From a virus, in UHGV virus genome UHGV-0074612: 17,318 nucleotides of DNA. One strand, 5' to 3'. How positions within the stretch are numbered: position 1 is the stretch's first letter; every line of letters begins with the position of its first letter. Shown here piece by piece: positions 13,201 through 16,687 of this stretch. The position numbers and the translations under genes are program-made. The notes beneath the pieces were generated by a model. The model saw only the letters and a program-made list of their open reading frames with translations. It had not been told where the DNA came from and did not search any database.

Positions 13201-13379
13201 GAGGTTGCCCCGTATTCAGTGTCGCTGATTTGTATTGTCTGAAGTTGTTTTTACGTTAAGTTGATGCAGATCAATTAATACGATACCTGCGTCATAATTG
13301 ATTATTTGACGTGGTTTGATGGCGTAGATGCACGTTGTGACATGTAGATGATAATTATTATCATTTTGCGGGTCCTTTC

Positions 13380-13445
13380 CGGCGATCCGACAGGTTACGG
13401 GGCGGAAGGCGCGCGGGTTTTCGCTATTTATGAAAATTTTCCGGG
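13380..13445. other. cos site region with cosN-like 12-mer at 13400-13411
   Basis: GCGATCCGACAGGTTACG + GGGCGGAAGGCG + CGCGGGTTTTCGCTATTTATGAAAATTTTCCGG; both flanks match the lambda right and left ends as I recall, but the 12-mer differs from lambda GGGCGGCGACCT at its last six positions. Confidence 0.65.
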
Positions 13446-13508
13446 GAAAATCATGTCGGTACTTCTCGAACATAACTATTTGTTTTTTCTAATATCGAAT
13501 CCGTAAAA

Positions 13509-13563
13509 GGTCCGACATGAAAACGCCTAAAAAAGTCATTTTCGGGCACTTTCATGTCGGACC
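13509..13563. repeat. Perfect 14-bp inverted repeat with 27-bp A-rich spacer, in cosB position
   Basis: GGTCCGACATGAAA (13509-13522) and TTTCATGTCGGACC (13550-13563); sits between the cosN-like site and the Nu1-like start codon at 13588. Confidence 0.7.
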
Positions 13564-13587
13564 CTGTGTTTGTTGTTAGACTGTTTC

Positions 13588-13704
13588 ATGAAGGTTAATA
13601 AAAAGAAACTTGCCGAAATTTTCAACGTGGATCCGCGAACGATTGAACGCTGGCAGTCTCAGGGACTCCCTTGCGTCTCCGGAGGTGGCAGCGGGCCATC
13701 ATGA
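13588..13704 (+). pseudogene. Terminase small subunit (Nu1/gp1-like), N-terminal 38-codon stub
   Basis: [38 protein letters not shown] then stop; resembles the Nu1 N-terminal DNA-binding segment (lambda MEVNKKQLADIFGASIRTIQNWQEQGMPVLRGGG). The frame ends where terminase A homology begins. Confidence 0.75.
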
Positions 13705-14570
13705 ATGCGATGGGCAGTGACTACATCCGCGAGGTGAATGTGGTGAAGTCTGCCCGTGTTGGTTATTCCAAAATGCTGCTGGGTGTTTATGCCTACTTCA
13801 TAGAGCATAAGCAGCGCAACACCCTTATCTGGTTGCCGACGGATGGTGATGCCGAGAACTTTATGAAAACCCACGTTGAGCCGACTATTCGTGATATTCC
13901 GTCGCTGCTGGCGCTGGCCCCGTGGTATGGCAAAAAGCACCGGGATAACACGCTCACCATGAAGCGTTTCACTAATGGGCGTGGCTTCTGGTGCCTGGGC
14001 GGTAAAGCGGCAAAAAACTACCGTGAAAAGTCGGTGGATGTGGCGGGTTATGATGAACTTGCTGCTTTTGATGATGATATTGAACAGGAAGGCTCTCCGA
14101 CGTTCCTGGGTGACAAGCGTATTGAAGGCTCGGTCTGGCCAAAGTCCATCCGTGGCTCCACGCCCAAAGTGAGAGGCACCTGCCAGATTGAGCGTGCAGC
14201 CAGTGAATCCCCGCATTTTATGCGTTTTCATGTTGCCTGCCCGCACTGCGGGGAGGAGCAGTATCTTAAATTTGGCGACAAAGAGACGCCGTTTGGCCTC
14301 AAATGGACGCCGGATGACCCCTCCAGCGTGTTTTATCTCTGCGAGCATAATGCCTGCGTCATCCGCCAGCAGGAGCTGGACTTTACTGATGCCCGTTATA
14401 TCTGCGAAAAGACCGGGATCTGGACCCGTGATGGCATTCTCTGGTTTTCGTCATCCGGTGAAGAGATTGAGCCGCCGGACAGTGTGACCTTTCACATCTG
14501 GACGGCGTACAGCCCGTTCACCACCTGGGTGCAGATTGTCAAAGACTGGATGAAGACGAAAGGGGATACC
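13689..14570 (+). pseudogene. Terminase large subunit A, internal fragment (about residues 58-350 of lambda gpA)
   Basis: Track ORF 13671..14630; [50 protein letters not shown]... through ...[14 protein letters not shown] is lambda gpA as I recall. It lacks the gpA N-terminus and C-terminal half; the frame then runs into J-derived sequence out of frame. Confidence 0.85.
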
Positions 14571-14571
14571 C

Positions 14572-15883
14572 GAACACGGCACTGGTCGGCGTGCAGGTGG
14601 ACTCGGAGCAGTTCGGCAGCCAGCAGGTGAGCCGTAATTATCATCTGCGCGGGCGCATTCTGCAGGTGCCGTCGAACTATAACCCGCAGACGCGGCAATA
14701 CAGCGGTATCTGGGATGGAACGTTTAAGCCAGCATACAGCAACAACATGGCCTGGTGTCTGTGGGATATGCTGACCCATCCGCGCTACGGCATGGGGAAA
14801 CGTCTTGGTGCAGCAGATGTGGATAAATGGACGCTGTATGTCATCGGCCAGTACTGCGACCAGTTGGTACCGAATGGTTTTGGCGGCACGGAGCCGCGCA
14901 TCACCTGTAATGCCTGGCTGACCACACAGCGTAAGGCGTGGGATGTGCTCAGTGATTTCTGCTCGGCGATGCGCTGTATGCCGGTATGGAACGGGCAGAC
15001 GCTGACGTTCGTGCAGGACCGACCATCAGATAAGGTGTGGACCTATAACCGCAGTAATGTGGTGATGCCGGATGATGGCGCGCCGTTCCGCTACAGCTTC
15101 AGCGCCCTGAAGGACCGCCATAATGCCGTTGAGGTGAACTGGATTGACCCGAACAACGGCTGGGAGACGGCGACAGAGCTTGTTGAAGATACGCAGGCCA
15201 TTGCCCGTTACGGTCGTAATGTCACGAAGATGGATGCCTTTGGCTGTACCAGCCGGGGGCAGGCACACCGCGCCGGGCTGTGGCTGATTAAAACGGAACT
15301 GCTGGAGACGCAGACCGTGGATTTCAGCGTGGGTGCTGAAGGGCTTCGCCATGTACCGGGCGATGTCATTGAAATCTGCGATGATGACTATGCCGGTATC
15401 AGCACCGGTGGTCGCGTGCTGGCGGTGAACAGCCAGACCCGGACGCTGACGCTCGACCGTGAAATCACGCTGCCATCTTCCGGCACCACGCTGATAAGCC
15501 TGGTTGACGGGCAGGGGAGTCCGGTCAGCGTGGAGGTTCAGTCCGTCACCGACGGACTTAAGGTGAAAGTGAACCGGGTTCCTGACGGCGTTGCAGAATA
15601 CAGTGTGTGGGGGCTGAAGTTGCCGACGTTGCGTCAGCGCCTGTTCCGCTGTGTGAGTATCCGTGAGAACGATGACGGCACGTATGCCATCACTGCCGTG
15701 CAGCATGTACCGGAAAAAGAAGCCATCGTGGATAACGGGGCGCACTTTGACGGCGACCAGAGCGGCACGGTGAATGATGTCACGCCGCCAGCGGTGCAGC
15801 ACCTGACTGCCGAAGTCACCGCAGACAGCGGGGAATATCAGGTGCTGGCGCGCTGGGACACGCCGAAGGTGGTGAAGGGGGTG
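14572..15883 (+). pseudogene. Tail tip protein J, internal fragment
   Basis: Track ORF 14591..16687 begins at a GTG inside J-like sequence ([28 protein letters not shown]...). J homology runs to ...[12 protein letters not shown]; the J N-terminal third and C-terminal receptor-binding region are absent. Confidence 0.85.
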
Positions 15884-16687
15884 AAGGCACATTACAGAAA
15901 TGGAGGTCTGTTCTACCGTTCCTCAAGAGATGGCTATGGTTTTGAGGAAGACTGGGCAGAAGTTTATACCTCGAAAAATCTTCCACCAGAAAGCTACCCA
16001 GTCGGCGCACCAATCCCGTGGCCATCAGATACCGTTCCGTCTGGTTATGCCCTGATGCAGGGGCAGACTTTTGACAAATCTGCATACCCGAAACTTGCAG
16101 CCGCTTATCCGTCAGGCGTGATCCCTGATATGCGTGGCTGGACGATTAAGGGCAAACCTGCCAGTGGTCGCGCCGTATTGTCTCAGGAACAGGACGGCAT
16201 TAAATCGCACACCCACAGCGCCAGCGCATCCAGTACGGATTTGGGGACGAAAACCACATCGTCGTTTGATTACGGAACCAAATCCACGAATAACACCGGG
16301 GCGCATACCCATAGTATTAGCGGGACCGCAAATAGTGCCGGCGCGCACCAACACAAGAGTTCCGGTGCATTTGGTGGCACGAACACGAGCATTTTCCCTA
16401 ATGGTTATACCGCGATTTCAAATCCAAGCGCGGGGATTATGAGCACAACAAGCGGTAGTGGTCAGACTCGTAATGCAGGGAAGACATCATCAGATGGTGC
16501 TCATACCCACTCGCTGTCCGGCACTGCTGCAAGCGCAGGCGCACATGCACATACTGTCGGTATTGGTGCTCATACGCACTCCGTTGCGATTGGCTCACAT
16601 GGACACACCATCACCGTTAACGCTGCGGGTAACGCGGAAAACACCGTCAAAAACATCGCATTTAACTATATTGTGAGGCTTGCATAA
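15884..16687 (+). pseudogene. Side tail fibre (Stf-like) C-terminal region, fused in frame to the J fragment
   Basis: ...[45 protein letters not shown]... with repeated Gly/His boxes ([30 protein letters not shown]) and C-terminus [11 protein letters not shown], typical of lambda Stf and T4 gp37-type fibre tips. Confidence 0.8.

Follow-up and report, generated by a model that had tools for sequence, protein, structure and literature searches.

A perfect inverted repeat beside cosN in a defective lambdoid prophage fragment matches the R2 and R1 terminase boxes of phage 21

In the present study, we analyzed a 17,318-nucleotide stretch of viral DNA (UHGV virus genome UHGV-0074612; 17.3 kb, hereafter the window), and the results indicated with high confidence that the inverted repeat at 13509-13563 represents the R2 and R1 recognition boxes for the small terminase subunit (TerS) in a cosB of phage 21 specificity, within a complete lambda-like cos site. 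The cosB element of phage 21 is already known and well studied, and it is by homology with such systems that TerS and IHF would be expected to occupy the sites in the window. The left arm of the repeat, GGTCCGACATGAAA (13509-13522), lies inside the R2 box and the right arm, TTTCATGTCGGACC (13550-13563), inside the R1 box; the two 14-bp arms are perfectly complementary and enclose a 27-bp gap, ACGCCTAAAAAAGTCATTTTCGGGCAC. It was observed that this is the sole perfect inverted repeat of at least 12 bp with a spacer of at most 60 nt in the window, where base composition gives a chance expectation of 0.004 for such 14-bp repeats. The symmetry ran imperfectly into the spacer, yielding 25-nt arms with 84% complementarity and a 5-nt loop. 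The original prediction had located a perfect 14-bp repeat between cosN (13400-13411) and the Nu1-like ATG (13588), and this location was confirmed. Its description of the gap as a 27-bp A-rich spacer was correct as to length, but the A-richness was overstated, with 9 A among 27 nt, including one A6 run, alongside one T4 run.

The subsites of cos were transferred to the window by pairwise alignment from three phage 21 records (M81255, X02501 and OL657228), which carry experimental-era annotations. The resulting order was cosQ/R4, cosN, I2, R3, I1, R2 and R1. The R4 box CGGGTCCTTTCC (13369-13380, plus strand) was identical at 12 of 12 positions to the R4 protein_bind feature of M81255. This region is the packaging-termination subsite upstream of cosN. 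We take cosQ to lie within the R4 box. The cohesive-end sequence of cosN, GGGCGGAAGGCG (13400-13411, plus strand), had a canonical left half and a variant right half. Between cosN and R3, a putative I2, a weak IHF-like site, was assigned by annotation transfer (13429-13443, plus strand; 13/15 to I2 of M81255). The R3 box AATCATGTCGGTACTT, the principal TerS site, was found at 13449-13464 on the plus strand and matched phage 21 R3 at 15 of 16 positions. It was followed by a predicted I1, the IHF site, at 13471-13485 on the minus strand (13/15), which aligned to I1 of both M81255 and OL657228. The R2 box AAGGTCCGACATGAAA (13507-13522, minus strand) was inverted with respect to R3 and R1 and agreed with phage 21 R2 at all 16 positions, and the R1 box TTTCATGTCGGACCCT (13550-13565, plus strand), an accessory TerS site, agreed with its phage 21 counterpart at 14 of 16. 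The R2-R1 spacer (13523-13549), to which no strand was assigned, is a 27-bp quasi-palindrome, and the small-terminase gene (gene 1) starts at 13588.

In M81255 and OL657228, the features annotated as R2 and R1 coincided base for base with the arms of the repeat. The exact 9-mer core TCATGTCGG occurred only three times in the window, namely at 13451 (plus strand) in R3, at 13512 (minus strand) in R2 and at 13552 (plus strand) in R1. As read from the sequence, this R3 (+)/R2 (-)/R1 (+) arrangement is what defines a complex cosB of the lambda-like kind, and previous studies have reported that the orientation of R2 is opposite to that of R3 and R1 in complex cosB sites (PMC9026076, PMC4669245). 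The repeat is inverted because R2 points opposite to the other two boxes. The boxes (13449-13565) directly follow cosN on its right side and precede the TerS ATG, which is the position of a complex cosB. Counting 13400 as bp 1, R3 occupied bp 50-65, and its spacing from cosN was identical to that in phage 21 (OL657228). Within R3, bp 56 (13455) and bp 59 (13458) were both G, as in phage 21. The corresponding bases in lambda are presumably T and C. These two positions have been reported to be critical for TerS recognition and for the discrimination between phage 21 and lambda (PMC4669245).

The gene that follows the boxes was identified as a remnant of the small terminase (phage 21 gene 1/Nu1 family) at 13588-13704 on the plus strand, consisting of 34 native codons, a frameshifted tail (SGPS) and a stop. 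The Pfam Phage_Nu1 model, matched over its positions 1-36 of 164, passed its threshold at 50.1 bits. Over residues 1-29, the N-terminus was identical to phage 21 gp1 at 28 positions, and the recognition helix RTIERWQS (residues 17-24) was identical both to that of phage 21 gp1 and to that of PDB 7LWR, the DNA-binding domain of phage 21 TerS. The Nu1-like N-terminus had been described as different from lambda, and this was borne out by the helix, which reads RTIQNWQE in lambda. The original prediction had further placed the repeat in a cosB of non-lambda, phage 21 type and had proposed a comparison with phage 21 cosB and the gp1 N-terminus; in that comparison, both the annotated boxes (R2 16/16, R3 15/16, R1 14/16) and the gp1 N-terminus with its helix matched. 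The departure from lambda downstream of the cos flank was likewise recovered, with lambda-type and 21-type sequences parting from about 13445.

The pairing of box type and helix type was also seen in other loci. Nearly all of the approximately 125 IMG/VR loci with 21-type boxes encode one 18-residue DNA-binding motif (two differ at one residue, and two are frameshifted), and a lambda-type N-terminus and helix were found where the boxes are of lambda type (E. coli pAH01-1, APEC E14033 and K-12 DLP12). R-box and helix sequences thus co-vary, in the way that a protein and the site it recognizes would be expected to. A third R-box type, with cores CATGTCAG and CATGTCGT in the same R3-I1-R2-R1 layout, was observed in phage PhiR5_1 (L128:790-920), where it goes with a third helix, RTIDRWQT; this combination may represent another packaging specificity. 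In two intact relatives (L004:3288-3833 and L005:1722-2267), we found a natural chimeric TerS, in which a 21-type N-terminal DNA-binding domain is joined to a lambda-type C-terminal part. In intact relatives, the chimeric TerS is followed by a lambda-type large subunit, gpA.

The cos region of the window was compared with those of phage 21 and lambda. In phage 21 (gp1/TerS-21; M81255, X02501, OL657228), all subsites have the same order, orientation and spacing as in the window, and the overall cos identity was approximately 85-88%. Several differences were observed. The phage 21 arms pair at 13 of 14 positions, whereas those of the window pair at all 14; the window has one extra A between I1 and R2; the spacer of phage 21 is in the opposite orientation; and the window shows changes at 5 of 6 positions of the right half of cosN and a truncated TerS gene. 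Moreover, the intact relatives of the window carry a lambda-like TerS C-terminus and a lambda-like gpA, unlike phage 21. The cosB of lambda (gpNu1; PDB 1J9I) has the same architecture, with an inverted R2/R1 pair in which 16 bp are identical and with a similar spacer (PMC4669245, PMC9026076). In lambda, I1 likewise lies between R3 and R2, and cosN and R3 are as far apart as in the window (PMC4669245, PMC9026076). The lambda R boxes, however, are of the CGTTTCC type, in contrast to CATGTCGG in the window, and the lambda helix differs as given above. These differences in R box and helix define the mutually exclusive packaging specificities of lambda and phage 21 (PMC4669245).

The position of the IHF site bears directly on how the repeat is read. 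It had been proposed that the arms are small-subunit sites flanking an IHF-induced bend inside the 27-bp spacer. Both arms are indeed small-subunit sites, and the A6 and T4 tracts of the spacer fit such a bend. However, a scan with the IHF consensus WATCAANNNNTTR gave a one-mismatch match at 13473-13485 on the minus strand, between R3 and R2; the same scan detected no IHF consensus in the R2-R1 spacer (13523-13549), even with one mismatch. All three phage 21 annotations also set the IHF sites outside the R2-R1 spacer. Furthermore, phage 21 and the lineage of the window, to which the isolated phage IdasGreatGrand belongs, have the spacer in opposite orientations, and no segment of cosB is less conserved; neither property would be expected of an asymmetric IHF site. 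We therefore consider a bend within the spacer extremely unlikely. The claim that the arms flank the IHF bend was not sustained, since the three annotations and the consensus scan agree in placing I1 at 13471-13485, between R3 and R2.

A different reading concerns the transcript rather than the DNA. The repeat might form an RNA hairpin in the leader of the late transcript, ahead of the small-terminase start, that controls translation, mRNA stability or termination. The predicted fold is stable in the plus strand of both the window (-32.4 kcal/mol, z -3.7) and phage 21 (-36.6 kcal/mol), and the hairpin ends 25 nt before the ATG. Nevertheless, the strand that pairs best is not the same in the two lineages: it is the minus strand in the window (-36.2 against -32.4 kcal/mol) and the plus strand in phage 21 (-36.6 against -24.7 kcal/mol). 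This reversal follows from the inversion of the spacer and speaks against an RNA function tied to one strand. Neither a terminator-like site nor a promoter was detected at the repeat by scanning; the nearest promoter-like match lies upstream, at 13337-13364, and is within chance expectation. Similarly, no Rfam family reached its threshold at the repeat, where generic hairpin (miRNA-precursor) matches scored 21-28 bits against gathering scores of 60-95. The arms are, in addition, fully explained by the R-box orientation conserved in all lambda-like cosB sites (PMC9026076). The co-variation of the arms between lambda-type and 21-type sites is equally predicted by protein specificity, and the RNA stem cannot be broken by mutations that leave the R boxes on DNA unchanged, which makes the RNA and DNA readings hard to separate by sequence change. 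Taken with the strand reversal and the R-box explanation, a regulatory hairpin seems highly unlikely to us. A chance palindrome, or the site of an unrelated dimeric regulator, would account for the symmetry and for nothing else. Against it stand the chance expectation of 0.004, the third copy of the core in direct orientation at the R3 position and the match to characterized phage 21 sites, which leave this reading with virtually no probability.

For the preferred reading, in which the arms are the R2 and R1 boxes, a mechanism can be proposed by analogy with phage 21 and lambda. IHF would bend the DNA at I1, between R3 and R2; in the characterized systems this bend is about 180 degrees and aligns R3 and R2 for a TerS dimer (PMC4669245, PMC9026076). 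The two winged helix-turn-helix motifs of the dimer, each with the helix RTIERWQS, would then dock in the major grooves at R3 and at the inverted R2 across the bend, and R1 would serve as an accessory, non-essential TerS site. This corresponds to the published model, in which the TerS dimer bridges R3 and R2 over the bend and R1 is accessory (PMC4669245). The left arm, as R2, would act together with R3 across the bend and not with the right arm across the spacer, and the repeat would thus be a by-product of box orientation. Bound TerS would anchor the large subunit, TerL, which would nick cosN 12 bp apart, and packaging would start rightward. Previous studies have reported that the anchoring of TerL by TerS serves accurate staggered nicking of cosN (PMC4669245, PMC9026076). 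The spacer between R2 and R1 would carry no oriented signal.

The spacer of the window was identical to that of phage 21 at 16 of 27 positions in direct comparison and at 23 of 27 when compared as the reverse complement. With a flank identity of 88%, the probability of 16 or fewer matches in 27 is 1e-4, and 23 of 27 is unremarkable. Simple divergence would therefore be a poor account of the direct comparison, and the contrast between the two orientations points to one inversion between the arms, separating the lineages; on this alignment evidence, the inversion itself seems genuine. Repeated reversal of the spacer was considered and rejected, as 63 unique cos sequences showed one old event and no ongoing switching, with each spacer orientation always tied to its own flanks. 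Both orientations occur in isolated phages, which suggested that the orientation is functionally neutral and that a phage remains viable with the R2-R1 spacer inverted. The extended R2-spacer-R1 quasi-palindrome, with its 25-nt arms, may be an inversion-prone or cruciform-capable module, and an orientation-independent symmetric DNA structure might aid the assembly of the packaging-initiation complex; such a structural role is speculative, and we regard it as unlikely. The words "inverted", "palindrome" and "cruciform" do not appear in one paper on cos (PMC4856287).

A BLAST comparison of the region with phage records gave approximately 85% identity to phage 21 and 97% to the isolated coliphage IdasGreatGrand, which carries the same cosB subtype, and thousands of E. 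coli prophages also matched the region. Among 69 unique relatives, the R boxes were the most conserved segments, with 14 of 16 columns of R3 invariant; for the IMG/VR set, the search pattern fixed the R2 and R1 cores, so that their conservation is partly circular, and left R3 and I1 unconstrained. The least conserved segments in the same 69 relatives were the R2-R1 spacer (mean 0.81) and the stretch from R1 to the start codon (0.81).

The cosN of the window, GGGCGGAAGGCG, differed from the sequence shared by lambda and phage 21, GGGCGGCGACCT, at bp 7, 8, 9, 10 and 12, that is, at 5 of the 6 right-half positions. The left half and the flanking CG dinucleotides were conserved. It has been reported that variation in cosN's right half (bp 7-12) is common in nature and tolerated (PMC4669245). 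The variant cosN was present in 17 of 117 IMG/VR loci, mostly with an intact TerS, as well as in dozens of E. coli genomes, and the exact combination of the cosB subtype of the window with this cosN was found in prophages whose TerS genes are full-length. A lambda-type cosB accompanied the same cosN in E. coli pAH01-1 and APEC E14033. The occurrence of the variant cosN with either 21-type or lambda-type cosB indicated that cosN and cosB assort independently, with a crossover near 13444/13445. The packaging signals of lambda-like phages thus appear modular, in that the right half of cosN, the type of cosB and the TerS C-terminus assort independently. Four IMG/VR loci (L013, L034, L055 and L100) combined 21-type R3, I1, R2 and R1 boxes and a 21-type helix-turn-helix with a very different cosN region (…CCGGGGGTCATAGCACGCGCAAAAACGCGC…); the small-subunit gene of this divergent group starts with GTG.

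The original prediction had overlooked the truncation of the Nu1-like gene, which amounts to a 38-codon stump continuing into gene A, so that the site lacks a cognate terminase in cis. Alignment to intact relatives revealed the junction of a 586-bp deletion at 13688/13689, which takes away the remainder of the small-subunit gene together with the beginning of gene A. By this deletion, TerS codon 34 runs into an interior part of a lambda-type gene A in a different reading frame, and no microhomology is obvious at the joint. A search of 5,426 complete E. coli genomes and the GTDB species representatives did not recover this junction, and it was found only in one 18-kb metagenomic IMG/VR contig (L099; IMGVR_UViG_3300039332_000035), which is probably the source contig of the window itself. 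The sequence to the right of the junction, at 13689-14570 on the plus strand, is an internal fragment of the large terminase (PHROG 15, Pfam GpA_ATPase), comprising the lambda-type gpA ATPase domain with both ends gone. Homology to gene A stops at 14569-14578 according to BLAST, and homology to tail fibre J begins at about 14567, with the C-terminal part of J at 14591-16687 on the plus strand (PHROG 31, central tail fibre J; profile positions 480-912 of 1565). At this second junction, at about 14569-14578, the terminase fragment is fused straight to J; the head genes have all been lost, as have most tail genes. The genes beside cos are accordingly not an intact terminase pair: TerS is the 38-codon stump, and TerL is the internal fragment fused to J.

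The backbone of the window is that of a lambdoid prophage, with int, exo, bet, RusA, Q, a porin-like gene, holin, endolysin, Rz and a Rha-like regulator, followed by cos. Between bet and the RusA-like gene, the segment 5134-6965 contained short ORFs only, to which no function was assigned, and the immunity/replication region may be reduced. The cos sequence itself looks intact when aligned to its relatives. With the terminase genes destroyed in cis, however, the cos of this contig is a relic, which could be used only with a 21-specificity terminase supplied in trans by a co-resident phage, and its present-day function is doubtful. Identifying the packaging specificity of this defective lambdoid prophage fragment as phage 21 type has little import beyond correct annotation. 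The fragment also shows that terminase genes can be lost while a cos of intact appearance persists, and a helper phage of 21 specificity could, in principle, still use this cos. The cryptic prophage DLP12 of E. coli K-12 (nohD and the aaaD pseudogene) resembles the window in having an intact-looking cos beside decayed terminase genes and a terminase fragment adjoining tail-fibre genes. In DLP12, the R boxes are of lambda type and the small-subunit gene, nohD, is full-length, whereas the window has 21-type boxes and a 38-codon stump.
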